A stretch of DNA of 26,688 nt, from positions 4,147-30,834 of the forward strand of contig CAZPUM010000002.1 in assembly GCA_964589765.1 (NCBI GenBank). Direction: 5' to 3'. Positions within the stretch are counted from its first letter, which is position 1; each line of letters begins with the position of its first letter. Below the pieces are notes generated by a model. It was not told the origin of the DNA, did no database searches, and worked only from the letters and a program-made list of their open reading frames with translations. Made by a program: the position numbers and the translations under genes. Below, in pieces: positions 1-19,100 of the stretch. The DNA comes from an uncultured Methanosarcinales archaeon. GTDB taxonomy: Archaea > Nanobdellota > Nanobdellia > Woesearchaeales > UBA525.

Positions 1-210
1 TGTACAGGCCATAGGTACTATGGTGTCCCTCACACTCTCAAGTTTGCCTATTGTTTTTGACAATTGAAGACTGGCTCTGCATTCCTGTTCAGTAAATTCC
101 TCTTCCAAAGCAGGGCCTAATATCATCAGGTAAAGTGCAATCATAACAATCGCCAGAGAACCTAGTACTACAACGACCAGAACACCCATTATTTCTGCTC
201 TCTTATTCAT
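1..210 (-). CDS. Class III signal peptide (archaeal type IV pilin-like) protein; N-terminal 70 aa only, runs off the window start
   Basis: My own translation from ATG at 210-208 gives MNKRAEIMGVLVVVVLGSLAIVMIALYLMILGPALEEEFTEQECRASLQLSKTIGKLESVRDTIVPMACT, open to position 1. It has a short basic N-terminus followed by a hydrophobic helix, like its upstream paralogs. The motif TIVPMAC parallels TTVPLCG and TLPEFSC in the neighbours. Its ATG overlaps the TGA of the upstream micro-ORF (ATGA). Confidence 0.55.
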   Translation of the reverse strand, partial: MNKRAEIMGVLVVVVLGSLAIVMIALYLMILGPALEEEFTEQECRASLQLSKTIGKLESVRDTIVPMACT

Positions 211-326
211 GGGAACAACTGTTTTAGCACGATGTATACTATGTAGCCTAGAATAAATATGCCTAACAACAAAAGTATCAGTGTAAGGCTTTTGTTACCC
301 ATCACTTGTGCTTCTCCTTTCCTCAT
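207..326 (-). CDS. 39-aa micro membrane protein with a prepilin-like N-terminus (not in the supplied ORF track)
   Basis: My own translation gives MRKGEAQVMGNKSLTLILLLLGIFILGYIVYIVLKQLFP. A GAGGT Shine-Dalgarno lies 6 nt upstream (rc of 327-340 reads aagaggtaaatt then ATG). The stop TGA overlaps the next ATG (ATGA at 207-210). Confidence 0.4.
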   Translation of the reverse strand: MRKGEAQVMGNKSLTLILLLLGIFILGYIVYIVLKQLFP

Positions 327-356
327 AATTTACCTCTTGTTTGAATCTTGATAAAC

Positions 357-836
357 CTAACGGCAGACACTCAACCGGAAATAACCAGTTCCTCTGCCTC
401 CTGATAGTATAATCTCACTGCGTAAAGCTGAGCTCAACTGTACTGTTGGCGTACTGCTGTTACATCCCACAGTCACATTAACATCCCTGCCTTCCAGACT
501 CAGGTTGTAATACAGACCTTGTTTTGTTAGGGTCTGCTCGCCTATATCTGAAAAAACACTTTGAAGAGCATCGCAGGGGTCAAGTGGACATATGTAATAA
601 TCATCTTCCAAACATGCTCTTGCCACTCTTTCAACTGACGCACCGCACAAGGGAACTGTGGTCTCTTTCAGCGCAGTCATGAAAGCGCTCGCTTGCTGAG
701 TCGCCGCCGCTTGACGGGTATACTCCCCAGTTCCACCTGATGATATAGCATTAAAACGCACAAACAAGACTATTCCCAACACCAAGATTACAACCACAAA
801 CACAAGACCTATCATCTCAATCTGTGCTTTTCTCAT
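357..836 (-). CDS. Class III signal peptide (archaeal pilin-like) protein, 159 aa
   Basis: The N-terminus is MRKAQIEMIGLVFVVVILVLGIVLF: basic residues, A-Q, then a hydrophobic helix. This closely resembles KG-QIAMELG-type archaeal prepilins. ATG at 836 overlaps the TGA of the upstream gene (833-836). The mature part contains 6 Cys. Confidence 0.75.
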   Translation of the reverse strand: MRKAQIEMIGLVFVVVILVLGIVLFVRFNAISSGGTGEYTRQAAATQQASAFMTALKETTVPLCGASVERVARACLEDDYYICPLDPCDALQSVFSDIGEQTLTKQGLYYNLSLEGRDVNVTVGCNSSTPTVQLSSALRSEIILSGGRGTGYFRLSVCR

Positions 837-1312
837 CCAGCTTCCCTCACAATAGTTAGTACTCCAAACCCTCTTGTATCTTCAACAGGGTCATGAACGG
901 TGAAGTATGTTCTCATTATCTGGTACCTTTCCGAGTTTAGTCTTGAGTTCAACACCAGTTTCTGATTTGCTCCTGAAAAATCAACAATCTCAAGTGTTAT
1001 GTTTGAGAAACCCAGTATTGGGGTGTACTGCAGGGCCAGTCTCTCATCCGCCATCATCGATTGGAAAACCTTTGCTTTTTCCAAATCTATACAGTAAGTC
1101 CCTCTGGTTTCAGAAAGAGCACAGGAAAACTCTGGTAGTGTGGTAATTCTCTGCAGAAGTGCTAACGCTTCTCTACTTTCGTATGCCGCTGCAGAGTCTT
1201 TTGCATCAGATTCTACAAACCCTATCCAGAACAACATACCTATCCCTGCGATAATCGCTAAAAATATGATTATCAGAATCGGCTCCAGAGTTTGTAGTTG
1301 GCCTTTCCTCAT
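833..1312 (-). CDS. Class III signal peptide (archaeal pilin-like) protein, 159 aa from ATG 1312
   Basis: The N-terminus is MRKGQLQTLEPILIIIFLAIIAGIGMLFWIGF. The track start at 1327 is a TTG. The ATG at 1312 forms an ATGA overlap with the stop of the upstream gene (1309-1312). Confidence 0.75.
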   Translation of the reverse strand: MRKGQLQTLEPILIIIFLAIIAGIGMLFWIGFVESDAKDSAAAYESREALALLQRITTLPEFSCALSETRGTYCIDLEKAKVFQSMMADERLALQYTPILGFSNITLEIVDFSGANQKLVLNSRLNSERYQIMRTYFTVHDPVEDTRGFGVLTIVREAG

Positions 1313-2340
1313 GCTATCACCGGGCAACTGCTGTCCAGCAGAGTTAACTGCTGTCTAACCAGCAGATTTGAGTTTGAAAACAAGGATGTCATGTAATCCT
1401 CAACATTTGTGGCTGAATGTGCAGGCACAAATATGCTGTCCAAAGCCACATTATATGCGTCTCTACAGTAAAGTGGAAGTCCTGGTTGAGCTTTTATGTA
1501 ACTTCCTCTCTGCTCGTAAATCTGTGTCAGTGTTCTCATTCTGAAACCGAAAGCTTCCCTGCCACAAACATAGTTTTCTGGTGTCCCTGTTACAACCGCC
1601 CCTGCTCCGAGATAATCTGTGAAGTATTTCTCCTGCTTTGTCTGAACCAATACTTCTCCATCCCTTTCATAAAAAGTTACAATACCCACATCTGCTGTTT
1701 GTGGTTCCAACCTTACACCCAGTACTCTTTCTGGAGCATCAGGTATGGCTCTGTTGGCCAAGTTGACCTCTGAACCAACATGAGCTATCACTAATGTATC
1801 TGCACTCTTTGGAACTCGCAATCTTTCAGGGTCATTGAGGTTCAGACTGGATATTATTTTGACATTCTGAGTCTGGGGAAGATGTTTTTTAACATCCTGA
1901 ATGTTACCTTGTGAATCCTGAACCAGAAGATAATAAGTGTTTGAATCCAAAGCGTAAAGAACGCTTCCAATAGGGATTGGTGATTCTGTTTCAGCACCCA
2001 ACAATACCTCCTGTGTTCTGACTGTTGTCATACCAGAAATTTCCGGCGGTAAAAACACAGGAGTTCTATCAATTGAGTTGGATGCCCTGTCCGTTCTTAG
2101 CGTCAAAGTTCCCCCCGGACAGGTCACAAGACTTGGCTGTAGCGAAAGATTGGCAGTTGTATCCCCTTGGAAAACAAGGGATTGTAAACGGCTTGTTGCT
2201 GCAGCAGTACCAAGGGCTTCAACTCTTGTTGTTCCATCCTCAGTACAGCCCTTGATTAAGAAAAAGAACATTATCAGAAAGGCCAGACTTGCCATTAATA
2301 CAAATATATAATTCATTGACAGGCCTACCTGTCCTTTCAT
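1309..2340 (-). CDS. Class III signal peptide protein with a large (about 310 aa) extracellular domain, 343 aa from ATG 2340
   Basis: The N-terminus is MKGQVGLSMNYIFVLMASLAFLIMFFFLIKG. The track start at 2415 is a GTG lying 76 nt inside the upstream gene. The ATG at 2340 gives an ATGA overlap with the upstream stop (2337-2340). Confidence 0.75.
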   Translation of the reverse strand: MKGQVGLSMNYIFVLMASLAFLIMFFFLIKGCTEDGTTRVEALGTAAATSRLQSLVFQGDTTANLSLQPSLVTCPGGTLTLRTDRASNSIDRTPVFLPPEISGMTTVRTQEVLLGAETESPIPIGSVLYALDSNTYYLLVQDSQGNIQDVKKHLPQTQNVKIISSLNLNDPERLRVPKSADTLVIAHVGSEVNLANRAIPDAPERVLGVRLEPQTADVGIVTFYERDGEVLVQTKQEKYFTDYLGAGAVVTGTPENYVCGREAFGFRMRTLTQIYEQRGSYIKAQPGLPLYCRDAYNVALDSIFVPAHSATNVEDYMTSLFSNSNLLVRQQLTLLDSSCPVIA

Positions 2341-2879
2341 GAAGCACCTAGCAGTATTGTCCGACCGAACCCTTCTGTTGAGAACATAAAACTGCCAGTA
2401 GAAACATTTAGACACAACACATTTTCAGCAGGGTCCTCTTCTGGCTTTGACAAAATTATTCTTTGGTCGTAACTTCCAAAAATATCATCTTCGGAAATAA
2501 GGAAAACATTTTCTTCAACACCTTGACTTAGTGAAACTTTGATTGAAGGATTGTCTACAACAGGCACAATAGAATCAGGAAAAGCGACGTTTGCCTTGAC
2601 CATTCTGTTGTCAGCTATACACAATTGCTTTGCATCACAGGGAGATGTTATATCCACAAAGTTTCTGCTTCCAAAGACTGCGTTGGAATCCAAAGCTCTT
2701 TTGAAACTGTTTTTGAACTCTACAAGTTCGGCTTCACAGGAAGATTCACTAAACGAGCCTATCAGTTTTCCTCCAATCCATACTGTGGCTATTATAACTA
2801 TCATGGCAAAAAGAAATGTAAAAGCGTGACCTGTCTGACCCTTAGAGTTTTTCAAGTTCGTCAAACACATCCTCCTCAT
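2337..2879 (-). CDS. Class III signal peptide (pilin-like) protein, about 175-180 aa; start ambiguous (ATG 2879, ATG 2870 or TTG 2855)
   Basis: The N-terminus reads ...MCLTNLKNSKGQTGHAFTFLFAMIVIIATVWIGGKLIG (K-G-Q then a hydrophobic helix). A GGAGGA motif lies at 2870-2875. All three candidate starts overlap the 3' end of the 1289-aa gene by 14-38 nt. The part of the track ORF upstream of 2879 is a frame-shadow of the low-complexity tail. Confidence 0.65.
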   Translation of the reverse strand: MRRMCLTNLKNSKGQTGHAFTFLFAMIVIIATVWIGGKLIGSFSESSCEAELVEFKNSFKRALDSNAVFGSRNFVDITSPCDAKQLCIADNRMVKANVAFPDSIVPVVDNPSIKVSLSQGVEENVFLISEDDIFGSYDQRIILSKPEEDPAENVLCLNVSTGSFMFSTEGFGRTILLGAS

Positions 2880-5800
2880 CCTGTTTTTTCTGCGATTTTG
2901 GTTGCGGTTTTGGTTGCGGTTTCTTTTGGGGTTCTTGTTTCTTCCCAATCTTAGCCAAGTCAACATACCCATCTTCAGATTTTGGCTTGGGGGTACTTTC
3001 TGGTTTTTTTACTTCCGACTTTACAGTTCCTTGCGGAATTTGGGGCTTGACATCCTGTTTTTCCGCAGGCTTTGTCTCTCCAAATTTATTGAACAACTCT
3101 TTTCTTTCATTTTCCTTTTCAGCCTCTCTCTGTTTTCGGGCCTTTTCAGCTGCTTCAGCTCTAGCTTTCTGTTCCTCAGCCAGTTTCTTTCGCTCTTCGG
3201 GAGACATGGGTTTCTGTTGTGGTATTCCTCTTTGAGGAGCAGTTGCTTGTGTTGAGGCTTTCGTTGCCTCTTCTGCTTTCTTCTGCTCGTTTAGAGTCCA
3301 AAGCCAGTATCCTGCGCCACCCATAACTAGAATTCCAAGAATGATTAATATCAGAGCTAACCAATCAACACCTTTTTCAGATACAGGAACGCATTCTCCT
3401 GAGACACACTCTTCATCAAGAAGACAATCCTCATCCTCAGTACACAGATCAATAGGGGGGATAACTCCTCCTATAGGAACACATTTTCCTGCGGAACTAC
3501 ATTCATAACCCTTATCGCAGTCTATGTTGAACATACACCCATCAGGCCTAGGCATACAATACCCTCCTATACATTCATCATCAAGGTTGGGGCACTCAGA
3601 TGCATCAAGGCAAGTAGTCTTAGAGGCCAGTGTGCAGAAGTTTGTATCAATATCACAGTTCGAGTCACACTTCAGGCTCCCGCCTGTGAATGAAAAGTCT
3701 GCGCAAGTCAGCCCGAGCACTTGGGAGCCATCACAAGACTCATTTACATTAACAATAGCGTCCCCACAGGTACCGTTTGTTGGGCCTATACACCCCGATG
3801 TGTCGAGTAAACAACCTGATTTACAGCCAAGGGTTCCGCCCGTAAATCCTAAGTCTGTACAACTTAGACCTGCAAGGTTGGTTCCGTCACAGGATTCGCC
3901 AACGTCCACAGCGCCGTTACCACAGGCGGCAGGTACCACAATAGGTACGCAAACACCCCCGACACACACTTTGGGGGTACATTGTAAATCACTTACACAG
4001 GATACGCAAGGAGGGCATGTTCCTCCACAATCAGTTGCGTTCTCACCCGCATCAAGAATCCCATTTGTACAGTGATCGGGTGCTGCAGTACATGCGGGGT
4101 CCAGAATATCTTTCACACTCAAAGACTTGACTTTTGGTGTTCCCGCAACTCCTGCTGCACTGATGGGTGTGAAAGTTGCGGTGTACAAACCAGGGGTTAA
4201 CCCTGTTGTTGGAATCTCAATGAAAGGTGCTGATGTATTTGCTTCAAAGGTCACACCTGCAGTACCATCAAGTTGAATCTGAACAACGGGCGAACCCAGA
4301 GAGCCAGACACATTGTAAGTGTATTTTACATCGGTTCCCACACAGGCAACCGAAACTCCGTTTAACCCCGTAAGTTCAGGAACACTTCTGTCAACTATAA
4401 AACTGAACTTTTTGATTGCCTGGTCTGATGCGGCCAGACAAGAAACCCAGTACTCATGAGTACCTTCACCAAGATTTCCTAGTATCTCTGAGAAAACACC
4501 GGCTGTTTCTGAACCAAATGATTTGTAAGGTCCTGTAGCACCAATGTCTGAGAACTCACAACTCGTTACAGGTTTGTTAGGTTTTATTGAGAATGTGATT
4601 GCTGTATCTGATGTTGCAGGTTCTGGACTTATCATTTCGATATCAAAAGGCATTCCAAAGTTTATTAGAATCGAAAAGTCCGTTGCATTAGCAAGGTTTG
4701 CTAAGTTTCTACACACAATTTCATAATCAACATCATGAGGATTATCATTTGTGTCAGACCTAAAATCTAAAAGTGTTGTGTGCTCGGTTTTGTAGGAGTC
4801 CTGACTATCAGGATTGTCAGAAGAATCAAACTTATTTCCGCCGTATGTACAATATGTTCTGTCATCTGTTGTTACAGTGAGCGTGACAATCGCGTTTGCC
4901 CTGCTTACAACTGTTTCAGGTACGGCGGTCACACCCATCTTTGGACTGGTATCATCTACACAGAAGTAGAATGTCTTGAAGTGTTCTCTTAAGTTAGTTT
5001 CACGACACATAATTTCTACATCGGCATCGAAGAAACTGAATGTGTCCGTGTGTTTTCTGTTGTCTGTTGTAGAAAGTATCTCTCTTTCCTCCCATTCCGC
5101 ACCAGTGTCTGTCGAGTACCTACAATTTGCATCTCTTGTTGATAGTAACTCGGCAGGGTATGGGCTAGATAACCCGCAACCCAACGGAGGTTGTACCAGC
5201 TGAATAAATGGGGGAAGGCCACATTCGCCATCCTCGCCAGGCCTTAACTCTACCGACTGTGTCGATGACGAACCATCATTCCCCGCATCATCCGTAGCAT
5301 AAACAGACCATGTTGCGGGGTTGGTTACAGCAGTCGACCCCAAATCCAGTTCAACAAACTGCCTTGGTCCTCCAGGAGTGAACCCTTTGAACAGTTCACC
5401 AGTTGAATCTCTCACTGAATAATTGTAATAGTCAATTGGCTCAGAAGAAACATTGAAAGACGCTCTAATTTTATTGAAACATACTGCAGGACTTGCGTTA
5501 AGTGTTGGAGCTGGCGGGGCAATACTATCTATTGTAACCACATAAGTTCGCGTTCTGTTCTTTGCCCCTGTACAGTTCAATTCGAAACTATTCTCTCCTT
5601 CAACAAGGAAAGGTTTTGCGTACCCTTTCTTCCAAGTATTGGGAATGCTTGTATGAACACTCATCAGTTCTCCATTAGAACGACACTCCTCACCCGCATA
5701 GGTTGGTTGTACCACCAGGTCAAAAGATGACAGCGTTGTTATTTCGTCAGGTTGTAAAACCTGTATATCACTGAACTCACCAAAATTAACTGTGACAGGT

Positions 5801-6711
5801 ACTGTTGTGGAAGAAGATAACCCTGCCAGATTTTCACATTCGACAGTAAATTCAAACTGGTGCCTGTTATTATCATTGATAGTGTTGAAGTATTTCAATT
5901 CCTCGTGATATGTTTTGAATGTTGACGCAATTACAGGGTCCTCATCTGGAAAATACTCTCCATCAAGTGTACAAGTTGCGTTCTCATCTGTTGTGACTTT
6001 AAACACGGTCCACTTGTACCTGGGGTCTGTGACATTTTCTGGTGTGGCTTGAACAGTTATTTCTGGAGGTGTGTTATCCCAACCAACAAAAAACTTCGCA
6101 GGAGTCTCTTCAACACCATCCTTACACATGATGAAAAAATCCCCTCTCAGATTTTGAGAAGGGGCTGTGTGCGTAGTTGTTGGTGTTGAACCAGAACTGG
6201 TTCCCTGCATCACATCCCACGTGGTGAAATACCACTGCCATTTACACACGGCCTCTTTTTCTGTAGTCCAAACAATATCATAAGGAGCCGTGTCAGACCA
6301 ACCGTTTTCTGGCTCAATAAGAGTGATATCCATACCTTCAATTGTGAATTCAACGGTGTCAACCTGGTCAGGGTGTGTTGGCAGTCCAGAACGGTCAGCA
6401 GCTATCAAAGTAAGCTGGTATGTACTGGGCAAAAGAGGTTTTTTATCACTCCAAAACATATGGCTCTTGGAATAGACCGCAGGAGGGCCTAATCCAGGGC
6501 TCGCTATCAAATCGTAAGTATCAAGAGCATTAACATCTCTAATAGAATAATCCGTTATCAAAACCTCTTCGGTGTAATTCACAATTATTTTCGGGTCCCA
6601 TATATGTGTGCCTTGGTCAATCGTAACTATTACCGCACTGACTGAAGGAGTTATGGCAAGAGCTATAATCAATAACACGAACCAATTCTTCGTAAATCTC
6701 ACCTCTCTCAC
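2842..6711 (-). CDS. Giant modular surface protein, 1289 aa. Order: signal peptide, two ~370-aa super-repeats of beta-sandwich-like modules, a Cys-rich stalk, one TM helix, and a 150-aa K/E/P/Q-rich cytoplasmic tail
   Basis: It has a GTG start at 6711 (GTGA overlap with the upstream stop). The signal peptide is MREVRFTKNWFVLLIIALAITPSVSA. Internal repeats cover aa 125-497 versus 498-866. The Cys-rich region aa 873-1107 contains 33 Cys and two CGNG/CGD...ESCDG repeats. The TM helix is WLALILIILGILVMGGAGYWLW (aa 1117-1138). The tail includes EEQKARAEAAEKARKQREAEKENERK...KPQPKPQPKSQKK. There are many N-x-S/T sequons. Confidence 0.9.
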   Translation of the reverse strand: MREVRFTKNWFVLLIIALAITPSVSAVIVTIDQGTHIWDPKIIVNYTEEVLITDYSIRDVNALDTYDLIASPGLGPPAVYSKSHMFWSDKKPLLPSTYQLTLIAADRSGLPTHPDQVDTVEFTIEGMDITLIEPENGWSDTAPYDIVWTTEKEAVCKWQWYFTTWDVMQGTSSGSTPTTTHTAPSQNLRGDFFIMCKDGVEETPAKFFVGWDNTPPEITVQATPENVTDPRYKWTVFKVTTDENATCTLDGEYFPDEDPVIASTFKTYHEELKYFNTINDNNRHQFEFTVECENLAGLSSSTTVPVTVNFGEFSDIQVLQPDEITTLSSFDLVVQPTYAGEECRSNGELMSVHTSIPNTWKKGYAKPFLVEGENSFELNCTGAKNRTRTYVVTIDSIAPPAPTLNASPAVCFNKIRASFNVSSEPIDYYNYSVRDSTGELFKGFTPGGPRQFVELDLGSTAVTNPATWSVYATDDAGNDGSSSTQSVELRPGEDGECGLPPFIQLVQPPLGCGLSSPYPAELLSTRDANCRYSTDTGAEWEEREILSTTDNRKHTDTFSFFDADVEIMCRETNLREHFKTFYFCVDDTSPKMGVTAVPETVVSRANAIVTLTVTTDDRTYCTYGGNKFDSSDNPDSQDSYKTEHTTLLDFRSDTNDNPHDVDYEIVCRNLANLANATDFSILINFGMPFDIEMISPEPATSDTAITFSIKPNKPVTSCEFSDIGATGPYKSFGSETAGVFSEILGNLGEGTHEYWVSCLAASDQAIKKFSFIVDRSVPELTGLNGVSVACVGTDVKYTYNVSGSLGSPVVQIQLDGTAGVTFEANTSAPFIEIPTTGLTPGLYTATFTPISAAGVAGTPKVKSLSVKDILDPACTAAPDHCTNGILDAGENATDCGGTCPPCVSCVSDLQCTPKVCVGGVCVPIVVPAACGNGAVDVGESCDGTNLAGLSCTDLGFTGGTLGCKSGCLLDTSGCIGPTNGTCGDAIVNVNESCDGSQVLGLTCADFSFTGGSLKCDSNCDIDTNFCTLASKTTCLDASECPNLDDECIGGYCMPRPDGCMFNIDCDKGYECSSAGKCVPIGGVIPPIDLCTEDEDCLLDEECVSGECVPVSEKGVDWLALILIILGILVMGGAGYWLWTLNEQKKAEEATKASTQATAPQRGIPQQKPMSPEERKKLAEEQKARAEAAEKARKQREAEKENERKELFNKFGETKPAEKQDVKPQIPQGTVKSEVKKPESTPKPKSEDGYVDLAKIGKKQEPQKKPQPKPQPKSQKKQDEEDVFDELEKL
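3634..3924 (-). repeat. Two tandem ~45-aa cysteine-rich repeats (CGNG/CGD-x-ESCDG type, resembling the Myxococcus-type cysteine-rich repeat)
   Basis: CGNGAVDVGESCDGTNLAGLSCTDLGFTGGTLGCKSGCLLDTSGC (aa 930-974) matches CGDAIVNVNESCDGSQVLGLTCADFSFTGGSLKCDSNCDIDTNFC (aa 982-1026). A related copy, CGNGILGLTEQCEPG...SCDELGF, occurs in the 1192-aa protein. Confidence 0.7.
4114..6339 (-). repeat. Intragenic protein-level tandem duplication: two four-module super-repeats (aa 125-497 = nt 5221..6339; aa 498-866 = nt 4114..5220)
   Basis: Module-by-module matches seen by eye. ITLIEPENG...AVCKW...FFIMCKD...DNTPPEI matches IQLVQPPLG...ANCRY...VEIMCRE...DDTSPKM. VTTDENATCT...FEFTVECENLAGL...VTVNF matches VTTDDRTYCT...YEIVCRNLANL...ILINF. 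The divergence is at protein level; there is no near-identical DNA. Confidence 0.75.
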
Positions 6712-8939
6712 TTCTCTTCAAGCCTTGCTTCCAGTATGGCGGCTCTGCCATAGTCCTGAATAACAATCTGTGTTGGATACGAAGTGACAACTTCTGCGTT
6801 CTCACTTGCGTCAATTGAATAGTAATACATCGTATAAACTCCCTCTTCGGGCAAATCAACGGAGGATAATCTTGATTGAGGTTCACAAGCGCCCGAATCT
6901 GAAAAACAGACTCGTGTATCAATCATTCCTATTGGACTCGCATCATCATAAACGGCATATGGGAAACTCCTTACTTCTGTCCTTCCATAAACTGGAGGTT
7001 CAAGCAGAAAGAACTCTGTTTCTGGAGGCACATTATCTCTGACACAGTAAGGATTATTTTCGTGAAAATAACCATTCTCTATACAGTCATCTTCATCACG
7101 GGTCTGTTTTTCGTCGGCATCTTTTACACACCTGGTTTTACCTGATACCCAACTACATGTTTGTAGACCTAAAGAGTCAGAACTTGGGGTTAACAGCGCG
7201 TTGGAACCAGAACGTTCATCTCCTGACCATGAAATATCAAAGACAGCATCCGTTCCACCAGTACAGGCATCTTGAGTGTCATAGTACCTACAGGCCATAT
7301 CACTGGAGTGTAAGCAACCATACGAACGTGCCAGACCATTTTTTTCTCCATCATAATAGCATTCTGGACTTATCGCTGAACAGACGTTGGAATTACAGAA
7401 CCCTATGACATCCTCGCACGAGTCACAACTTGGTCTTTCCTGTCCAAGACAGACGCCTTTCCCGAGTTCCGGAACAACATCCTGCCAATCGCAAACATCG
7501 TCTATCGCACAAGGGTTATCTGAACACGAACCGTAACTCTGATAGTCAGCGCAGGAGGTTATCGCAGCACAACTACTGAACGTAGTGAAAGTCATCGGCC
7601 TTCCTCCGAAGGCCTGGTCTGCGAAACACTGGTAAGTTTCATCCCCACATAATAAAGTCAAATCACCTACAACAATGCTCAAGTCAGAGTCAGCAAAAAG
7701 CCCAAGAAGACCGTTACACTGTTCGCACTCTGGTTGAGGAATACACTGGGCAAACCCGTTTATTGTTGAACAAATTGTATTAGTGCCTGAAGAATCGACG
7801 TCACAAACATTATCTGCTGAAAGCTGGTTCTCTTCGTCACACTCAACAACTGCGTTTTCACCTTCAAACTCACCACACCATTTTATGGGCGAACCTGCCG
7901 GGCGGTTCATACACTCATCTACACCTGTTGTGACACAGGCACCTGAATCGGTGTTTGAACTCTCTGTTATAGTTCCGTCGCCAAACCTTGCTCTAACAAC
8001 ATAACAATAAGTTGTTTCTGGTTGTAAACCTGAGTCCTCAATAACATAAGATGTCGATGGTTGAATCGGGTTGCAGTTGTTAAAGTCCGCATCACATCTC
8101 AGAGGTTCGTACTGTATGAAATCTCCGCACACATCATCAAAAGACACGGTTAAAACAACGGTGTCCGAACCCACGACAGGCTCCACAGACTCAACGTCAG
8201 GCTCCTCTTGAACACAGGAACCAAGTTCGCAGTTTAAGTTTATGTTTATGCCTGTTTTGTGATTGTCAACAACCACAACTGAAGACATGCCTGGCTGGCA
8301 TGCGGGATGAATTGCGAATACGCGGGTGGACATGCCAGGAACCTCTTCAAGTCTGTACTGCCCTGCAGAATCTGTAAAATCGCTAATGGCTCCTTGAGGA
8401 ATTGGTATGAAAACCTCCACATTCTCAAGAGGATGAACCCCTGTCCCGTTTTGTATGGTTCCCGAGACTGTATATGTATCATCCCCTCCCCCTCCTGCAG
8501 GGCTACCTGAGCACACCTCAACGCAGGAAGACGCAGCTGGAGGCTGTCCTTCCCAAGAGTAATCCTGTCCTTGGGCTATTTTTACTTGACAAGCGTTTTC
8601 TGTAATCTCAATAAGAGCAGGGTCTACATTGATTTGCCCACTATTTACAACAGAAGAACCAGCACAACAACATCCTATTGCACATTGTGTTAGAGGACTA
8701 CATGTTGATAGAGTTCCTGCCCCTTCAATTATCCCGCTTTGGGATGAACACGCGCTCTGGAAGGAGGGTTCTGACCCGAAAGCATCACCGTTAAAACAAT
8801 CTCCATAAGGTGGAACACAACAGCCCCACGTCTCCGCGTACGCGTTCGAAGACATTGTTACAGCTAGCACGATAACAACAACCAGTGCTACAATCCACCT
8901 CACCACAGACGATTTTCTCGTCTTTAAGTTTATAAACAT
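6708..8939 (-). CDS. Cysteine-rich secreted protein, 743 aa from ATG 8939 (752 aa if TTG 8966)
   Basis: The signal peptide is MFINLKTRKSSVVRWIVALVVVIVLAVTMSSNAYA-ETWGCC. I count about 50 Cys by hand. It has a CarboxypepD_reg-like segment (YTVSGTIQNGTGVHPLENVEVFIP...DSAGQYRLEEVP) and an FN3-like segment (LQPETTYCYVVRARF). The C-terminal module EGVYTMYYYSIDASENAE resembles the Ig-like domains with G-x-H-x-v-x-Y-y-S-x-D-x-A-G-N-x-E. There is no C-terminal TM helix. Confidence 0.85.
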   Translation of the reverse strand: MFINLKTRKSSVVRWIVALVVVIVLAVTMSSNAYAETWGCCVPPYGDCFNGDAFGSEPSFQSACSSQSGIIEGAGTLSTCSPLTQCAIGCCCAGSSVVNSGQINVDPALIEITENACQVKIAQGQDYSWEGQPPAASSCVEVCSGSPAGGGGDDTYTVSGTIQNGTGVHPLENVEVFIPIPQGAISDFTDSAGQYRLEEVPGMSTRVFAIHPACQPGMSSVVVVDNHKTGININLNCELGSCVQEEPDVESVEPVVGSDTVVLTVSFDDVCGDFIQYEPLRCDADFNNCNPIQPSTSYVIEDSGLQPETTYCYVVRARFGDGTITESSNTDSGACVTTGVDECMNRPAGSPIKWCGEFEGENAVVECDEENQLSADNVCDVDSSGTNTICSTINGFAQCIPQPECEQCNGLLGLFADSDLSIVVGDLTLLCGDETYQCFADQAFGGRPMTFTTFSSCAAITSCADYQSYGSCSDNPCAIDDVCDWQDVVPELGKGVCLGQERPSCDSCEDVIGFCNSNVCSAISPECYYDGEKNGLARSYGCLHSSDMACRYYDTQDACTGGTDAVFDISWSGDERSGSNALLTPSSDSLGLQTCSWVSGKTRCVKDADEKQTRDEDDCIENGYFHENNPYCVRDNVPPETEFFLLEPPVYGRTEVRSFPYAVYDDASPIGMIDTRVCFSDSGACEPQSRLSSVDLPEEGVYTMYYYSIDASENAEVVTSYPTQIVIQDYGRAAILEARLEEK

Positions 8940-8947
8940 TCCGTCTG

Positions 8948-10246
8948 TTACGACGAGACGGGGCAACCTAGCACAACTTTAGAATCCATCCAACCATCTG
9001 TGTCACTCACAGTCATGTTCAAATCCACGCCACAAACCGCGCCAGAGATATCATGACACCAATTGATAGAGACTGGATAACCATCGGGGTCTATGCCCTC
9101 TAAAACCCCGTCAGATAAAAGTTCTGTTGCAGAATGACTCTGCAGATAGGCACAGGAAAGATCAGAAAGAATCACAACGGGCTCTCTGTGCTCCATAAGA
9201 AACGAGAATGTATAGGATACTCCATCAAGTTCAGATTTAGAGTCTATTATTGTTACCATTGTTGCTGTTTCGCCGTTCTGTTGAATTGGCGGAGAAAGAG
9301 TTGTTTGAGCGACTGAATCAACCTCACTGGTCTGAACAGTAAACCCTGGTTTCCAGGAAGGAACTTCCCTGTAATCCTCAGAAATATCAAAAGCGATATC
9401 TCGGGATTCTCTTAAAGCCAAATCTCTAGCGTACTGCGCTATTTGCATGTATCTGAAATCGTAAGTTCTTCTGACCTCTTGTAAGTTAGTCTCTGCCTGC
9501 CCCACAATTGTTAATGGATAATAAACGCTGACAATCACATTGTTGAATGTGTATGCTATCTCTGCGGTTGGCTCTCCTACCTCAGTAACATCCACTCCAA
9601 GAGCCTCAGAGAATCTGGCAGGATTTGCACAGGCCTGAACTCTGTTAGCTATAATTGGCATAAGCATATTTTGTGTTGACTCTGTGTTAGGAACACTTGG
9701 TGGGCTACCCGGAAAACTCCTACACTCCCTAGTACTTCCTGGCCTGTTTGGGCCTTGTTTGTCACAGATTGGCGCAAAATTCACGTCACCAAAATATCCG
9801 GGCTGCCAAGATACCATTTTATTGCCCGTATCTGCCTGAATCAGGGTGTTTTCAACAGTAAAATCCTCATGAGGATAATCAGGCAGTTCATTTCTGTACG
9901 GTCTAAGTCCTGCTGAGCCAGGGATATCTCTGTTACGCGTCAAACCGTACAGCATCAACCGGGTTGTCGGACCTGACCCCACAATAGCTCTTGGATATGC
10001 GGGGTCATCAACATGCAGTCCTCCGGACTGTCCGAGCTTCTTGAACTCATCTATCACAACAGTGTCTATACAACTGCCAAGGACTGCACTCAGTTCGGCA
10101 GCGTTTGCACCCTCAATTATCTGTTGTCCCTGTTCGTACTCTTGCTGGACTCTCTGCTCAGTATCTAGCACCAGGAAAAATATCGCGACTATGAATAAAA
10201 TTACGAGACCCACTGCAACAAAAATTGTGACCTGCCCACCTCTCAT
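8948..10246 (-). CDS. Class III signal peptide protein with a large (~400 aa) extracellular domain; first gene of the operon, 432 aa from ATG 10246
   Basis: The N-terminus is MRGGQVTIFVAVGLVILFIVAIFFLVL. ATG 10246 lies 26-27 nt from the centre of the TATA box at 10268-10276. The upstream ATG at 10264 is only about 8 nt from that centre. Confidence 0.8.
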   Translation of the reverse strand: MRGGQVTIFVAVGLVILFIVAIFFLVLDTEQRVQQEYEQGQQIIEGANAAELSAVLGSCIDTVVIDEFKKLGQSGGLHVDDPAYPRAIVGSGPTTRLMLYGLTRNRDIPGSAGLRPYRNELPDYPHEDFTVENTLIQADTGNKMVSWQPGYFGDVNFAPICDKQGPNRPGSTRECRSFPGSPPSVPNTESTQNMLMPIIANRVQACANPARFSEALGVDVTEVGEPTAEIAYTFNNVIVSVYYPLTIVGQAETNLQEVRRTYDFRYMQIAQYARDLALRESRDIAFDISEDYREVPSWKPGFTVQTSEVDSVAQTTLSPPIQQNGETATMVTIIDSKSELDGVSYTFSFLMEHREPVVILSDLSCAYLQSHSATELLSDGVLEGIDPDGYPVSINWCHDISGAVCGVDLNMTVSDTDGWMDSKVVLGCPVSS

Positions 10247-10267
10247 ACTATCGTCGAGTAACATAGA

Positions 10268-10276
10268 TATTTAAAG
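10268..10276. promoter_or_regulatory. Shared (bidirectional) TATA box TATTTAAAG between divergent leaderless genes
   Basis: The centre (~10272) is 26 nt from ATG 10246 (minus strand) and 26 nt from ATG 10298 (plus strand). The core TTTAAA is palindromic. Confidence 0.55.
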
Positions 10277-10297
10277 ATATCCTGCGATGTCACGTCG

Positions 10298-11158
10298 ATG
10301 AGAGAACCAATAGCCACTGGCAGTCATTATATGAAGGACAGTCAGATGCTTCGTGATGAGATTATCGGGGCATACAAGAGCCAAAGAGGCCCTGGCAGAC
10401 TAGGTGTCGAGGTAAAAAAAGATGTTAAGGGAGTTATCTCACCTAACAGCCCATACAGGCACTGTTCACAGTGTATGGCTTGGGCCTACAAAGCGATAGC
10501 GGAAAGCCCAGGGGCAGATGTTTACTTTCTGATAGGTAATAATCAGTACAGTTCTGAATCAGGAATGGGTACGGAGTACTTCATCACCCCTCTTGGCTTC
10601 GTTAGAACCGACGAAGAACTTGTCGAAACCATACGAAGGAAAGGAAACATCGGAGTTAATAATGAGATTCATGAACACAACAAAATTCTCGAGGTCCAAA
10701 TTCCATTCCTTCAACACGCTGTTGAAAACAAGGTTGATGATATTTGGATTGTTCCTATTCTGTTAAATCCCAGCGCCAATGTTGAGGCAATAGCCAAAGA
10801 CATTCTTGAAACTCTGTCAGAGTTAGAAAGAAATGCGATTTTCATTGTGAGCAGTAATTTCACACGACACGGTCCGCTTTTCCATTATGTTCCTTTCACA
10901 GACCATATCCAGCAACAAATAACACAGATTGACAAAATAGCTTTCGAAAAAATCAGACAACAAGATGCCGAGGGACTTGCCGAAGTTGCAAAAGACCAAC
11001 TGATGAACTTCGATGGACTAGAAGCTATGGAACTGTTACTTCGACTTCTCCCCGAGTGCGAAGTGTCGATAGCACAGTACTATACGTCAGGTGACATTCT
11101 AAGTGATTACAAAAACAGCGTTTCATACGCCGCAATAGTATTTGACCAGAAAAAATGA
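10298..11158 (+). CDS. Memo-like protein (AmmeMemoRadiSam system protein B family), 286 aa
   Basis: The N-terminus REPIATGSHYMKDSQMLRDEI matches the family's R-x-P-x-v-A-G-s-F-Y-p...L opening. GVISPNSPYRHCSQCMAWAYKAI corresponds to the PHAGY-x-YSG...AY block. SSNFTRHGPLFHY corresponds to SSD-x-SHYG. The C-terminus YYTSGDILSDYKNSVSYAAIVF corresponds to n-S-G-D...v-v-g-Y-a-s. Confidence 0.7.
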   Translation: MREPIATGSHYMKDSQMLRDEIIGAYKSQRGPGRLGVEVKKDVKGVISPNSPYRHCSQCMAWAYKAIAESPGADVYFLIGNNQYSSESGMGTEYFITPLGFVRTDEELVETIRRKGNIGVNNEIHEHNKILEVQIPFLQHAVENKVDDIWIVPILLNPSANVEAIAKDILETLSELERNAIFIVSSNFTRHGPLFHYVPFTDHIQQQITQIDKIAFEKIRQQDAEGLAEVAKDQLMNFDGLEAMELLLRLLPECEVSIAQYYTSGDILSDYKNSVSYAAIVFDQKK

Positions 11159-12546: not shown

Positions 12547-12557
12547 TTAATATTTAA
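12547..12557 (-). promoter_or_regulatory. TATA-like TTAAATATTAA (minus-strand reading) upstream of the pseudouridine synthase gene
   Basis: The centre is about 23-26 nt upstream of ATG 12529. It overlaps the TAA stop (12554-12556) of the 710-aa gene. Confidence 0.35.
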
Positions 12558-14686
12558 CACTGATTGAAAGACATTACAACAAGCTGTATTATCTTTCCGT
12601 TGTACTCAACAAGCCTGGTCTGAGTAATCAAATCTTCCGCACAGCTCTCAATCTCCAACTCAGTTTCCACCGTTTCAGCTAGAATCGGGTTCCCTGAACA
12701 ACACTCTACTTTGTGCGTCGAGTTTAGATTAAAAACAGTTCCCGCATCAGCATCGTCACAAATTCTTATGACTTCTAACTGGTGTTCCGGTCTGAAACCA
12801 TCAAGAGTACAACCATTCACACCAAGACATGTATCATAATTACAGACTCCATAAATACTACATGTTGGTGTGCACTCTTCAGGACTGAGCTCGAAATTCT
12901 GGACATATGGGTCTGTGGACTCTGTAAGAACAATGTTTTCGTGAGTTTGAGGCAGATACATTGAGTGGTCTGCTATTGCTGATATGCTTCCTACGTGGAT
13001 ATCATTAATTCTATATTGTCCGAACGTGTCTGATGAATCAGTTTTTCCAAAGAATAATTCACGTACGGTCGCAGATTGTATTGGCTGTCCTGTAACAATA
13101 TCTGTAACTCGCCCCTCCATTGAAACATAACAGTTTACACCAAGAGGGGCGTCCATGGTTGACAAGTCAGAGTAAGACTGTGAAAGATTAATGTTACATT
13201 CAGGTCTGTACGCGCCATCAGCAGGAGTTGGACAAGTGAACCTCTGAACGGTTCCTGACCACTCTCTTTTTGTACAGTCTATACCGTTCAGTTCAGCTGA
13301 CAAACTTCTCACGTTGCCAACATTAGCATCACAAAGTATATCCACTTCCGGATTGATTAAGCTACATTTGTTTGTCGTGACAGTGCTGATACCCTGAATA
13401 TCCACCTTACATTCACTGTCACCTTTTGTATTACCTGAAACACCATCATAATCGATTTCTAAATCACAGTCATTGTCTATAGCATCAGTACAGATTTCGG
13501 CAACGCCAGGGTTGATATTAGGGTCTGTGTCATCACAATCAGTTCTAGGCACAGGACATAGTGTTGGAGAACCTATTGCGGAATAACCGTCCCCGTCCTG
13601 GTCACATGGCACGCACTGGTCCACTATACAAACCTCACTTGGAGGACAGTTCCTGTCAACATAAGGGTCTCTACAACCCGATGACCAGTGGCAGTATCCA
13701 CCAGTATAATCTCTAACTCTTGTGTCTGTTAGACAGTAATCATCGGAAGTTGAACAAGATACCGCAGAACCAGGTTCACAGTTGCCTACGCCATCGCAGG
13801 CATCGGGAGAAGTACACAGGTTATTGTCTGTACAGTACGACCCCGACGGAGAGTAACCCGTCCATATCTCTGTACACCTCAGCTCCCAAGGGTCGTCATC
13901 CATAACACAGTTCTGAGCATCCATATTTCCTGTTCCACTGTATCCTTTCCCCTCCTCATCATAACAACCCGCGCCCACATTACACTGTGGCTGTCTGTCC
14001 ACACAAAGAATTTCTTCATACAGGCTGTCAGTTATCGATGCAATACCTATCACATAGTAAATATCACAGTTAAGCTGGTCTGAATCACACCCGCAGTTAC
14101 CTAATTGACATGATTGTCTGTGATACTCTAGGCAGATGTGAGGATTATAAGACGTTTCACCGGGGCTCCCAAAATTATCCATGCTCCACTTATTTGCACA
14201 ACCCCCGCAGTTTTCCTCGTCATCCAGATAATCCCATAGTTTGTCAGTAACCTCGCCATCACAACACTCATATCTTGATTGGTCAGTTATTGTATTGCCA
14301 CAACTCCCGCAATTATCAGAATCGTAGAAGATGTCAGTACATACTCCCCCGCAACAGTCTTCCCAGTTTTCACAATTATTGCCTGCAGAACCACAGTTGT
14401 TTCTGTCTGTTTGGAAGTCTGTACATCCATTGAGACCACAGTCAGGCCTATCTGAACTCCATCCACAACAAACTCCGGTTCCTCCAGTGTCGCAGTAAGG
14501 TCTCGCATCATTAACTGATGTACACGAATCTGATGTACAGGTAAGTCCTATACACTGCGCTACACCATAATCTCCATCTGTTTTTCCATCACAAAAGTTT
14601 GGCCAGTCGGAACACACAGGGGGTTCGCTGAAAGCGGTCACTACAGGAATCACCAAAAGCACTGCTAAAAAGAGCACCCACCTCAT
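12554..14686 (-). CDS. Cysteine-rich secreted protein, 710 aa
   Basis: The signal peptide is MRWVLFLAVLLVIPVVTAFS. I count about 64 Cys by hand (~9%). It has Stig1-like NCGSCGN/NCGGC motifs and a MopE-type motif, CDQDGDGYSAIG...DCDDTDPNINPGVAEICTDAIDNDCD (nt 13445..13606). It also has a CarboxypepD_reg-like segment, MEGRVTDIVTGQPIQSATV...DTFGQYRINDIHVG (nt 12917..13126). Confidence 0.85.
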   Translation of the reverse strand: MRWVLFLAVLLVIPVVTAFSEPPVCSDWPNFCDGKTDGDYGVAQCIGLTCTSDSCTSVNDARPYCDTGGTGVCCGWSSDRPDCGLNGCTDFQTDRNNCGSAGNNCENWEDCCGGVCTDIFYDSDNCGSCGNTITDQSRYECCDGEVTDKLWDYLDDEENCGGCANKWSMDNFGSPGETSYNPHICLEYHRQSCQLGNCGCDSDQLNCDIYYVIGIASITDSLYEEILCVDRQPQCNVGAGCYDEEGKGYSGTGNMDAQNCVMDDDPWELRCTEIWTGYSPSGSYCTDNNLCTSPDACDGVGNCEPGSAVSCSTSDDYCLTDTRVRDYTGGYCHWSSGCRDPYVDRNCPPSEVCIVDQCVPCDQDGDGYSAIGSPTLCPVPRTDCDDTDPNINPGVAEICTDAIDNDCDLEIDYDGVSGNTKGDSECKVDIQGISTVTTNKCSLINPEVDILCDANVGNVRSLSAELNGIDCTKREWSGTVQRFTCPTPADGAYRPECNINLSQSYSDLSTMDAPLGVNCYVSMEGRVTDIVTGQPIQSATVRELFFGKTDSSDTFGQYRINDIHVGSISAIADHSMYLPQTHENIVLTESTDPYVQNFELSPEECTPTCSIYGVCNYDTCLGVNGCTLDGFRPEHQLEVIRICDDADAGTVFNLNSTHKVECCSGNPILAETVETELEIESCAEDLITQTRLVEYNGKIIQLVVMSFNQC

Positions 14687-16194: not shown

Positions 16195-19100
16195 CTAAGG
16201 CATCTGATAAAGCGGTTGTTCATCAGGTAAGATAAAATCAACACAGTTCGAGTACTCACAAAGGTTGTTGTTACAACTCATGATGCAGTTACCTACAAAG
16301 GGACAGTCAGACACTGTCTGACAGTAACCTGCCCCTGTAGAAGGCTCAGCAGGCATGTAAGTCAAGCCGTAAGTCTTGATTGCGGCACAGTGTAACTTCT
16401 GTCCTGAGTAAATCCATGCAGGGGCTCTACACCGGACACCTTCCTCGTTACAGATAGGCATCCTTTGCGCGCAAGCCTCATCATTGTTAGGATTGGGGTC
16501 AGGAACATTCGGGAAAACCCTAATATCAATCATAACAGGAACCTCGTACTCGCCCGGAGCATATTCTATCGTAACAGGCTTCTTACAAATATTGTATCCT
16601 TCCTGTCTTGTTAGAACAGTATATCCTGCAGGACAACTTCCTGCAGATGCAGTCAGGTCAATAAATGTAAGCTCCTCCGTTCCTGAGAGGTAGCTGACAA
16701 TAGATTCGTCCTCGCAATAAATACATCTCCCTCCATCACAAGAGGTGGAGTAGAGTGTTTGAGGATTGATGAATTGCGGACTGGAAAGCTCTGAACATGT
16801 ATTTGCGCCAGGATTTCCTGTCCAAATGCCTTGTGCGTTGTGCGTTATGGATGTCAAGTTGCCCTCGATGAGGTTTAGTCCGCCATCAACCCATTGCGCT
16901 ATAAGTTCAAACCCGCTTGCTTCTACAACAGAGAAGTCTAGACAGGTTACCGTTCCATCAACTTTCGCACAGTATTCGGAACCAAATCTGCCCGCGTCTC
17001 CTGAAACAGCACCTGATATTGTATCGTTATCGTGTGCGAACAGCACGGTTGTTTCTCCTGTGTTCAGCATCTTGACAGCATAGTAAGGAGGCATGTTCTC
17101 GTTAGGGTTCAAGCCTTTTCCAACAGGCGTCTCCTCTGAAAGTATGGAACTATCTGTTCCTAAATCTGCAAAGGTTCCCAACCAAGTTACGACACCTGTG
17201 GAAGACCTGATGAATGTCATAGGAACAACAGGCGTTCTGTCACCAACCATTGCTTTCAGGGTTTCAAACTCGGCTGATGATGAGACTGTGTTATTTAGAG
17301 CCGTCCTTTGTTCATCGGTCAGACCAAATATTTCAGAAGGTATTGGTTGTGTCACGTCGTCCCAAACGACGTCACCATCCTCTGGAGGGAATCCTGCAAC
17401 TGTAAGGGCGTTACCAATAGGTGTTAATTGCCTTCCAGGCCCAAACACATCTCCTATATCATAAGAGGTTGTTTTTCCTAATGCCAAAGATAGCAAAAGG
17501 TGTGTGCCCTGACTTGGTAGGGAATCGGAACGGGTCTTAGCGCCAGCAGACGCTACTGTGTATCCCTCGTAATAATCATCATTTGGAATCCCTGTGTATG
17601 GGTTTTCTGGAATTATCACTTCAAACTCTGTAATCTCGCTGTCGACTCCAGATAATGCTGCTATGGCCCAGTATGCCTGTAGCCACTCTTCAGCAGCTTG
17701 TTGTATGTCTGTATGTCCTCTTGTCTTTGACTCAGCAAGTACTGACATTACGCTTGCAACAACTGAAGGGGAATATACAGGGCTCATAATATCAGTTCCC
17801 ATAAAGTTACCTTCCCCTTTCTGAGCGTTAAAGTAATCTATCCACCACTGAACATAATCCTCTCCTTCTTGAAGGTATACTGCTGCTCCGCAGATTACCG
17901 GAATGTTCTGTCGTGAGGATGCTAAAACAGAGGCTCCTGACGAACCCATAACACCTTCCGCATCCATAAGAGCTGATGAAGACAAGGAGTTTCCTTGTAA
18001 GACATCCCATAGGTATCCGTTACATTTACAGTAGTATTCGCCCGCGCATCCATAAACATCTGGTAGAGGTGGGGGAGGGGTCCAGTCGTCGAGACAGAGA
18101 CCTTCTTGGTATCCGCAGTCTGTTAAATCGTAAGTACACTCGTTTGCGTCGCCCACCGCGAGACAGTCCGCGCTGTCTTCACTGAGAAAGCCCAACTCAT
18201 CACAGGACTTAGGTTCACTGACACCCGGTTCACATTGCTCTGTGAGACCAAGAATTCCGTTACCACAAGTGTCACCAGCAATTACAGAGCCTGAACCTGC
18301 ACCTATGGTTACTCCTGATGTGAGCTGTCTCCAGAGCATCCAGTCCTTTGTATTTTGTCTATTCAGTTCGAGCATCATTACCTGTCCTTGGTCACTCAGA
18401 GTGTATATGTTGTCATCATCCTCTGGAACAAGCGAAGAAAAATCTGTTTTGAATTGGTTGAACGCCAGCACGGCATTATCTCCGTACCAGGTTGCCGTGA
18501 TTGTTTTATCCCCTTCCTTGGCCAAAAATGCGTGGTGGAACTTCTGCAAAGGAAGAGTTGTTCCAGGGTCTATAAGCCCTCCAACTTGGCCTGATGGTGG
18601 AAGACCGAAAAGACCTCTAAAGAAATCAACAACAGATTCGAGAACCGTTGTTTCAAGTCCATCTATGGGGTTCTGACTTACAAGTATGAAAGCGGCCTGA
18701 GATGCATCTATTGGGTCTAAATAACCGTATGTGTTGAAACCCGGAATCGGTTCTCCGTCCGAACCTTCATTACAGTCTGCAAACTCTGTTTCCAGAGAAT
18801 TTAGTATGTTTCCGCAAGCATCAGGTCTGATTTCTGATGGGTCTATCTGAGCCGCAAACAAATCTGATTGGAATGTTGAAAAGGTCGATTGAAAAAATGT
18901 TTGCGTTGTTCCCGCCGTCCCAAAAATAATCTCGTCGTCATACCTTAGTACACAGTAAGGTTGGGAAGCATCCCCTGGAAAGATTGGTAAGACCTCTGAA
19001 GCAGGACCGCAGTCAAGCGAGTAATCATCTCCCTGAGGGAGCTGTGCCATGTTTGCGGCCAGAAAAGCAAGTCTTCCTTCAGGAGTGCCCAACTCTCCAC

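Follow-up and report, generated by a model that had tools for sequence, protein, structure and literature searches.

A conserved operon of pilin-like genes encoding a candidate surface apparatus in a DPANN archaeon

Gene layout and the pilin-like N-terminus

We analyzed a 26.7-kb stretch of archaeal DNA (26,688 nt of contig CAZPUM010000002.1; hereafter the window), in which open reading frame (ORF) listing and translation revealed nine consecutive minus-strand genes that fill positions 1–10246. These genes, here called W1 to W9 (Table 1), include seven whose products begin with a short basic leader, a small residue, Gln or Glu and a hydrophobic helix. We consider it somewhat better than an even bet that they belong to a divergent, Epd/Tad-like member of the type IV filament (TFF) superfamily, a surface apparatus built from pilin-like proteins, with both cleavage and filament formation being predicted. 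Because the window encodes the TATA-box-binding protein (TBP) and RNase P p30, and because relatives of the locus are labelled Candidatus Woesearchaeota, the source organism can be assigned to the DPANN archaea, in line with the putative episymbiotic small-genome archaeon of an earlier reading made from the sequence only.

W1–W9 form one translationally coupled operon. Five junctions (W2/W3, W4/W5, W5/W6, W6/W7 and W8/W9) are 4-nt overlaps and the remaining gaps are at most 30 nt, except that the start of W4 overlaps the end of W3 by about 30–38 nt, which makes the W4 start codon uncertain. A 51-bp gap separates W1 from a divergent gene of the Memo family and contains a TATA-box-like element, TTTAAATA, which is a putative promoter; the first cistron is probably leaderless. 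At the other end, the partial W9 matches the N-terminus of an ortholog of ~300 aa (E = 1e-8) and the window therefore truncates the operon. Relatives have ~10 genes beyond this point, and positions 1–10275 are taken here as the half closest to the promoter of an operon of ~20 genes in this Woesearchaeota-type DPANN archaeon. The sequence-only reading had described a nine-gene operon; that the genes form a single operon was confirmed, but what the window holds is the 5' half of a larger cluster, widespread among DPANN archaea, and not a nine-gene accessory module. The tail of W3 contains a 12-nt tandem repeat, the sole one within positions 1–10400. The window contains no tRNA and no Rfam family, and a scan for sigma-70 promoters and terminators, which is uninformative for an archaeon, stayed at the level of shuffled sequence.

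In the seven pilin-like proteins (W1 and W4–W9), a basic leader of 3–11 residues is followed by Gly or Ala, by Gln (W1 and W4–W7) or Glu (W8 and W9) at position +1, and by a hydrophobic helix of ~20 residues. All seven thus display the charged leader, small −1 residue and N-terminal helix of a class III signal. When the six frames of the window were scanned with a regular expression for this signature ([KR]x0-1[GA][QE], then a hydrophobic 18-mer), we found 7 sites, every one of them in the operon, compared to 0.055 on average, and never more than 1, in 200 shuffled windows. These counts, together with the existence of orthologs, rule out chance ORFs, and they bear out the seven prepilin-like N-termini that the sequence-only reading had listed, a motif that is also kept in distant orthologs. 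Specifically, [KR][GA]↓Q (the arrow marks the predicted or known cleavage site) is kept in orthologs of W1, W4–W7 and W10 from more than 10 loci with a G+C content of 36–61%, and the W4 orthologs read [KR][GA]↓Q[IM][QP]Q/E..F. The specificity at −2, −1 and +1 is what prepilin peptidases require, and cleavage itself is predicted.

Unlike their seven neighbors, W2 and W3 carry classical Sec signals with AxA-type sites, and the pilin-like N-terminus is therefore not generic to the secreted proteins of this organism. Cleavage of the seven by Sec/signal peptidase I was considered and rejected, since their hydrophobic stretches contain no AxA site, unlike those of W2 and W3. A Cys motif (TLPEFSC, TTVPLCG or TIVPMAC) had been described as common to several paralogs; the motif is real and kept in orthologs, but in profile–profile comparison true paralogy was limited to W6~W7 (hhalign, 86%) and W9~W10 (98%), with the other families sharing the N-terminal helix alone.

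Table 1. Positions and properties of the features of the window; arrows mark predicted or Sec-type cleavage sites.
Feature	Position	Strand	Description
W1	8948–10246	−	432 aa; N-terminus MRGG↓QVTIFVAVG; large globular domain; first gene of the cluster
W2	6708–8939	−	743 aa with the ATG start (752 aa with the TTG at 8966); secreted, Sec signal
W3	2842–6711	−	1289 aa; Sec signal and C-terminal transmembrane anchor
W4	2337–2879	−	~180 aa; pilin-like N-terminus ..NSKG↓QTGHAFTFLF
W5	1309–2340	−	343 aa; pilin-like N-terminus MKG↓QVGLSMNYIF; C-terminal ...CPVIA, conserved
W6	833–1312	−	159 aa; pilin-like N-terminus MRKG↓QLQTLEPIL
W7	357–836	−	159 aa; pilin-like N-terminus MRKA↓QIEMIGLVF
W8	207–326	−	39 aa; helix-only micro-protein; leader MRKG↓E
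W9	1–210	−	First 70 aa of a pilin-like protein of ~300 aa; MNKRA↓EIMGV..; truncated at the window edge
TATA-box-like element	10268–10275	−	TTTAAATA; ~22 nt upstream of the W1 ATG; putative, read from the sequence
Tandem repeat	2891–2922	−	12-nt unit, in the W3 tail
W5 C-terminal site	1309–1326	−	Window counterpart of ...C-P-V-I-A in W5 orthologs
Memo-family gene	10298–11158	+	AmmeMemoRadiSam system protein B type; directly upstream of W1
710-aa giant protein	12554–14686	−	Secreted, Cys-rich; outside the operon
1192-aa giant protein	16195–19773	−	Secreted, Cys-rich; outside the operon
896-aa receptor ORF	19933–22623	+	TonB-dependent outer-membrane receptor architecture; Sec signal
Three tandem ORFs	24423–26665	+	Paralogous, ~240–266 aa; directly downstream of TBP

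Conservation and composition of the cluster

Gene order is conserved over a very large evolutionary distance. The series W1–W2–W3–W4–W5–W6–W7–(tiny W8)–W9–W10 is kept in orthologous loci at 24–47% identity, in archaeal genomes spanning 36–61% G+C, and four loci (L011, L014, L017 and L018) keep it despite unrelated upstream genes. Synteny had been named beforehand as a refutation test of the sequence-only reading, and the reading survived it, with gene order strongly conserved across loci. A scan of genome contigs turned up only two relatives, and a scan of viral contigs gave no match.

In the relative L007, the cluster continues for at least 20 kb and comprises about 20 genes, 17–18 of them with a pilin-like N-terminus, some of which encode helix-only peptides of 31–35 residues. 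Additions in L007 include a tandem pair of micro-proteins (44–47 aa), a 623-aa protein and an Amidase_2 protein. The latter, W19 (19391–20479 of L007, plus strand), is the last gene of the readable operon and fuses the N-terminus RRG↓DMFMLGLDVLFLIAII to an Amidase_2 domain (E = 1.9e-9), which is an N-acetylmuramoyl-L-alanine (peptidoglycan) amidase domain; a search of a 5.8-billion-protein collection with this protein returned zero matches. The amidase-bearing subunit suggests contact with a peptidoglycan-walled partner and is a hint that the apparatus may attack or bind the wall of bacteria.

We estimated the size of the W1 family with an exhaustive HMMER search using a W1 profile, which yielded 2863 clusters (50% identity) at E ≤ 1e-3 and 721 at E ≤ 1e-10. 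Many members are ~1000 aa long, with Cys-rich or immunoglobulin (Ig)/PKD extensions. No Pfam domain covers the W1 part of the family, and nine long W1 homologs gave zero Pfam domains. The idea that the ~1000-aa homologs are W1–W2 fusions was discarded, as BLAST revealed no similarity between their C-terminal extensions and W2. Out of 150 listed W1-family matches, 126 were scanned for the N-terminal signature and the 120 that matched were tallied. Among these 120 representatives, the −1 residue is Gly in 66%, Ala in 25% and Ser in 8%, the −2 residue is Arg or Lys in 83%, and the leader has a median length of 6 aa. Gln at +1 is invariant and Thr at +3, Phe at +5 and Gly at +9 are nearly so, giving a near-invariant start, [KR][GAS]↓Q-x-T-x-F-x3-G.

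W7 has five invariant cysteines, one of them penultimate in the protein, and a conserved C-terminal Cys pair. A small counterpart of W8 (32–42 aa) occupies the same position in L005, L007, L009, L010 and L016. The W5 orthologs of L005 and L007 share an extreme C-terminal ...C-P-V-I-A, whereas that of L016 ends in ...GCPRLY; the ...CPVIA end might take part in a disulfide bond, or it might act as a signal for sorting or processing.

W2 and W3 contain 50 cysteines each. The W2 signal ends in ...SNAYA↓ETWGCC and the protein has a CarboxypepD_reg-like Ig domain; its orthologs span 698–2529 aa and always come directly after W1. In W3, the signal ends in ...PSVSA↓V, a ~300-aa Ig-like module is duplicated in tandem (129–422 versus 503–802, E = 6e-25) with Cys-rich repeats behind it, and a transmembrane (TM) helix at ~1112–1140 precedes a tail that is rich in Lys and Glu, and also in Pro and Gln, and is predicted to be cytoplasmic. 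W3 orthologs contain DUF7107 and Dickkopf_N Cys-rich repeats, and sequence and profile searches of the PDB with W2 and W3 gave nothing significant. The comparison with PilY1-type adhesins made in the sequence-only reading holds in position: as in the type IVa minor-pilin/PilY1 tip complex and GspH-I-J-K of the type II secretion system (T2SS), small pilin-like genes lie beside large non-pilin surface proteins, and the role proposed, in priming or at the tip, is analogous. It does not hold in domain content, as W2, W3 and their orthologs showed no PilY1 beta-propeller or vWA domain and only CarboxypepD_reg, Ig-like and Cys-rich (DUF7107/Dickkopf_N) ones. Unlike the PilY1 complex, moreover, W3 is itself C-terminally membrane-anchored and pilin-like genes are 3–4 times more numerous.

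The Sec signals of W2 and W3 bear on two other explanations of the cluster. The first is a bindosome-like assembly, in which class III signals tether solute-binding proteins for uptake, as in Sulfolobus. The large non-pilin ectodomains of W1, W5 and W9 do carry class III-like signals, as do the non-pilin surface proteins of the Sulfolobus Bas system, but the two largest proteins are Sec substrates and the ectodomains are Cys-rich or Ig-like and resemble adhesins. Neither the window nor the relatives contain substrate-binding-protein (sugar-binding), ABC-transporter or Bas-like (BasEF) domains. We therefore abandoned the bindosome analogy of the sequence-only reading and regard such an assembly as extremely improbable.

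The second is a short T2SS-like pseudopilus, not an adhesive pilus but a secretion piston spanning the (pseudo)periplasm, whose task would be to export W2, W3 and enzymes like the amidase or to hold them in position. Such a piston would suit a cluster in which minor-pilin-like subunits are numerous and no abundant major pilin is obvious. T2SS substrates are first exported by Sec or Tat, which matches the Sec signals of the large partners, and the L007 operon does include an Amidase_2 enzyme. However, we found no secretin or other T2SS core component, T2SS are not known from archaea, and the amidase itself bears a pilin-like N-terminus and therefore looks like a subunit rather than cargo. The piston also shares every unproven step of the TFF hypothesis. 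We rate it as improbable, although less so than the bindosome.

Other genes in the window and in related loci

The Memo-family gene upstream of W1 adjoins it in five loci (the window, L001, L004, L015 and L016), in either orientation, but not in L011, L014, L017 or L018, and this adjacency may reflect regional synteny rather than a functional link. In L018, a distant relative, four extra co-directional genes (3970–9480, plus strand) precede W1, one of which encodes a 1137-aa Cys-rich protein. Three of the four are paralogs, with an N-terminal anchor followed by an '(A/Q)VDK..(A/P)WH' motif, and a radical-SAM/HxsD pair lies upstream of them.

Two more giant secreted Cys-rich proteins are encoded outside the operon. 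The 710-aa protein combines Stig1, MopE and CarboxypepD_reg domains and the 1192-aa protein has zero Pfam matches; by BLAST, neither is similar to W2 or W3. Relatives encode a giant protein with a HINT domain at the corresponding position.

The 896-aa ORF has the full architecture of a TonB-dependent outer-membrane receptor (Plug, 7.6e-10; TonB_dep_Rec_b-barrel, 1.2e-34; OMP_b-brl_3, 1.6e-26) and yet lies in a monoderm archaeon, between the archaeal genes for TBP and for the secreted protein of 1192 aa. The AT skew shifts at this ORF while GC is unchanged. It has no close relative in the PDB, and the syntenic loci of relatives lack it; either it was acquired horizontally from a Gram-negative bacterium or the sequence is locally misassembled. 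Finally, the three tandem paralogous ORFs downstream of TBP gave sub-threshold matches to protein-kinase, APH and RIO-like families.

Relation to type IV filaments and proposed role

Several features of the cluster recur in known type IV filaments, among which the archaeal Epd/'system 1' and bacterial Tad systems resemble it most in operation, through Gln at +1, helix-only subunits and large TadG-like pseudopilins. In the Epd ('system 1', clade 1) pili of Methanococcus maripaludis, the substrates of EppA have a leader of 5–13 aa that ends in Gly, with Gln at +1 (PMC3875500), and the specificity seen here matches this description. Another shared trait is a multigene operon of many pilin-like genes, from helix-only to 200–300 aa, with an adhesin-like partner (PMC4858521; 10.64898/2026.04.22.720090): archaeal clade 1 loci for type IV pili (T4P) with at least five minor pilins plus an adhesin have been described (PMC4858521), and a preprint reports that methanogens and some DPANN have major pilins of the Epd/Tad type that are helix-only, as well as 'system 1' loci with multiple pilins (10.64898/2026.04.22.720090). 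Unlike Epd loci, the present cluster has 17–18 pilin-like genes and two embedded giant Sec-dependent Cys-rich proteins, gives no DUF361/Class_IIIsignal match and has no conserved Glu at +5, and neither the locus nor its surroundings include EppA, an ATPase or a two-gene platform. MMP1685 is about twice as large as the smallest subunits of the cluster.

The TadE, TadF and TadG proteins of bacterial Tad/Flp systems offer a second parallel, with an N-terminal G↓x-polar-x-hydrophobic pattern, large TadG-like proteins whose helix lies at the extreme N-terminus, and a major pilin that is helix-only, as are the W8-type peptides. They differ in that the present cluster, whose host is archaeal, lacks a Flp motif and has none of the genes for TadV, TadA, TadB and TadC in its vicinity. 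A third is the fusion of a pilin module to large functional modules in PilB and PilC of Streptococcus sanguinis (PMC8179133, PMC9934059), which the W1 family and W19 of L007 recall. The S. sanguinis pilins share no homology with these proteins and belong to a complete T4P locus, whereas the pilin moiety here is only predicted.

Direct searches for pilin homology gave weak results that nonetheless point in one direction. Pfam Tad (PF13400, TadE/G-like) matched 4 of 69 W1-family members below the Pfam threshold, and matches to ComGE and TadE-like families were at noise level. The top PDB match of the W7 profile was PilA5 of T. thermophilus (E = 0.46, not significant). For the pooled N-terminal profile, half of the eight PDB matches were archaellins, whose own signal peptides lined up in register with the profile (E = 0.47–3.9, not significant). 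These Tad, PilA5 and archaellin matches are weak, and none is significant.

A number of results weigh against a TFF apparatus. As the sequence-only reading had already noted, the window contains no TFF ATPase, platform protein or prepilin peptidase; the same three functions were not found in the ~20-kb L007 operon, or in the flanks of L001, L004, L011, L014, L016, L017 and L018. Among the proteins of the window and L007, none matched Pfam Class_IIIsignal/DUF361, Pilin_N, Arch_flagellin, N_methyl or TadE, or the NCBIfam equivalents, at E ≤ 0.1, and PDB sequence and profile searches with W6, W7 and the pooled N-termini returned nothing significant. Glu occurs at +3 in W7 and +6 in W6 and is absent from W1, W4 and W5, so that the conserved Glu at +5 expected of Epd pilins is lacking in the window proteins. 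The FlaFind hexamer, said to go back to Szabo and coworkers in 2007, reportedly reads [KRDE][GA][ALIFQMVED][ILMVTAS]x3 before a TM helix. By eye, none of the seven window N-termini conforms to this pattern, each departing from it either at −2 or through a polar or Gly residue at +3/+4; the strict hexamer fails because most members are polar from +2 to +5. W1 orthologs with RGQVT[LM] would, also by eye, agree with it. We know of no pilin as short as the W8-type peptides, which would have ~31–35 residues when mature.

Structure prediction was divided. In the AlphaFold2 model of W6 (predicted local distance difference test (pLDDT), 73.5), a 54-residue N-terminal helix (4–57) leads into a short alpha–beta region and then a 4-stranded antiparallel sheet (strands within 104–157), a topology that appears pilin-like in a model built on only 4 sequences. 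The conserved Cys pair near the C-terminus of W7 likewise speaks for a pilin. The W1 model (pLDDT, 68) has helices at 3–42 and 47–73, followed by beta strands. Both models are shallow, resting on 4–6 sequences with pLDDT of 68–74, and Foldseek matched neither to a pilin in the PDB at E < 1e-3; the best weak matches of W6 were ribosomal protein S3 and Cache/PAS-type sensor domains. Of the structural support that the sequence-only reading had looked for, the helix-plus-sheet topology of W6 therefore materialized, but a fold match to pilins did not.

The literature is contradictory on whether DPANN archaea should have such filaments at all. One preprint, whose statement counts against our reading, reports T4P components to be missing from DPANN genomes (10.1101/2020.05.14.094862), while other papers describe T4P in Nanoarchaeota and some DPANN, and we found no paper describing the present gene cluster. 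In M. maripaludis and Haloferax, the genes for pilins frequently lie apart from the core genes (PMC3875500), so that the absence of core genes nearby is not decisive.

These same observations could be read as indicating a membrane-tethered envelope or host-contact complex that forms no filament. In such a complex, ~17 proteins with anchored ectodomains would retain their N-termini as uncleaved signal-anchors (type II topology) and combine with W2 and W3 into a fixed structure, either a surface layer or a contact patch, and [KR][GA]Q would reflect a constraint on membrane insertion or packing, or an unknown non-prepilin protease. Besides the lack of TFF core genes in any locus examined, the preprint claim and the lack of significant homology or fold matches to pilins, this explanation can draw on the Cache/PAS sensor ectodomains among the weak W6 matches, which also consist of a TM helix, a long helix and a sheet, and on the housekeeping neighborhood of the cluster (Memo, pseudouridine synthase and ribosomal genes), which would fit a core envelope feature. 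It leaves unexplained, however, why so many paralog families, and over 100 divergent W1 representatives, have a nearly invariant small residue at −1 and Gln at +1, why leaders can be as short as 3–4 residues and why 32–42-aa helix-only genes are conserved, and it does not account for the archaellins aligning, if weakly, in register with the pooled N-terminal profile. We view a purely tethered complex, the main rival, as possible but on the whole unlikely.

Under the TFF interpretation that we favor, a prepilin (class III) peptidase encoded elsewhere in the genome would cut between Gly or Ala and Gln, much as EppA does on the Epd pilins of Methanococcus. The freed hydrophobic helices would then bundle into a short pilus or pseudopilus, the core of which may consist of helix-only W8-type peptides and small W6/W7-type subunits. 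The large modular subunits (W1, W5 and W9/W10, and in relatives the 623-aa and Amidase_2 proteins) would decorate or cap this filament, and W2 and the membrane-anchored stalk W3 would serve as adhesive or structural partners at the cell surface. The predicted role is attachment to a partner cell, possibly with local degradation of the partner's wall.

A bolder and more doubtful proposal is that the cluster encodes an undescribed, DPANN-wide organelle derived from type IV filaments, a device by which Woesearchaeota-type episymbionts contact or penetrate their hosts. This organelle would combine ~17 class III-type subunits, among them helix-only micro-pilins of 31–35 residues and modular pilins that bear enzymes such as a peptidoglycan amidase, with an anchored Cys-rich stalk, in a fixed gene order passed on along with housekeeping genes. 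Its assembly might rely on core machinery that is encoded elsewhere or is of an unrecognised type.

Little is understood of the ways in which DPANN archaea attach to their hosts and exploit them, and the presence of type IV filaments in DPANN is disputed. The cluster described here is a concrete and widespread candidate for a contact apparatus, being large, syntenic and devoid of family annotation. The TFF interpretation makes specific predictions: mature N-termini should begin at Gln, the cluster should co-occur with an A24-type peptidase and filaments should be visible by cryo-electron tomography. If it is true, the known range of pilin number, size and modularity would widen, and the cluster would represent families that are missed by current TFF detection models.

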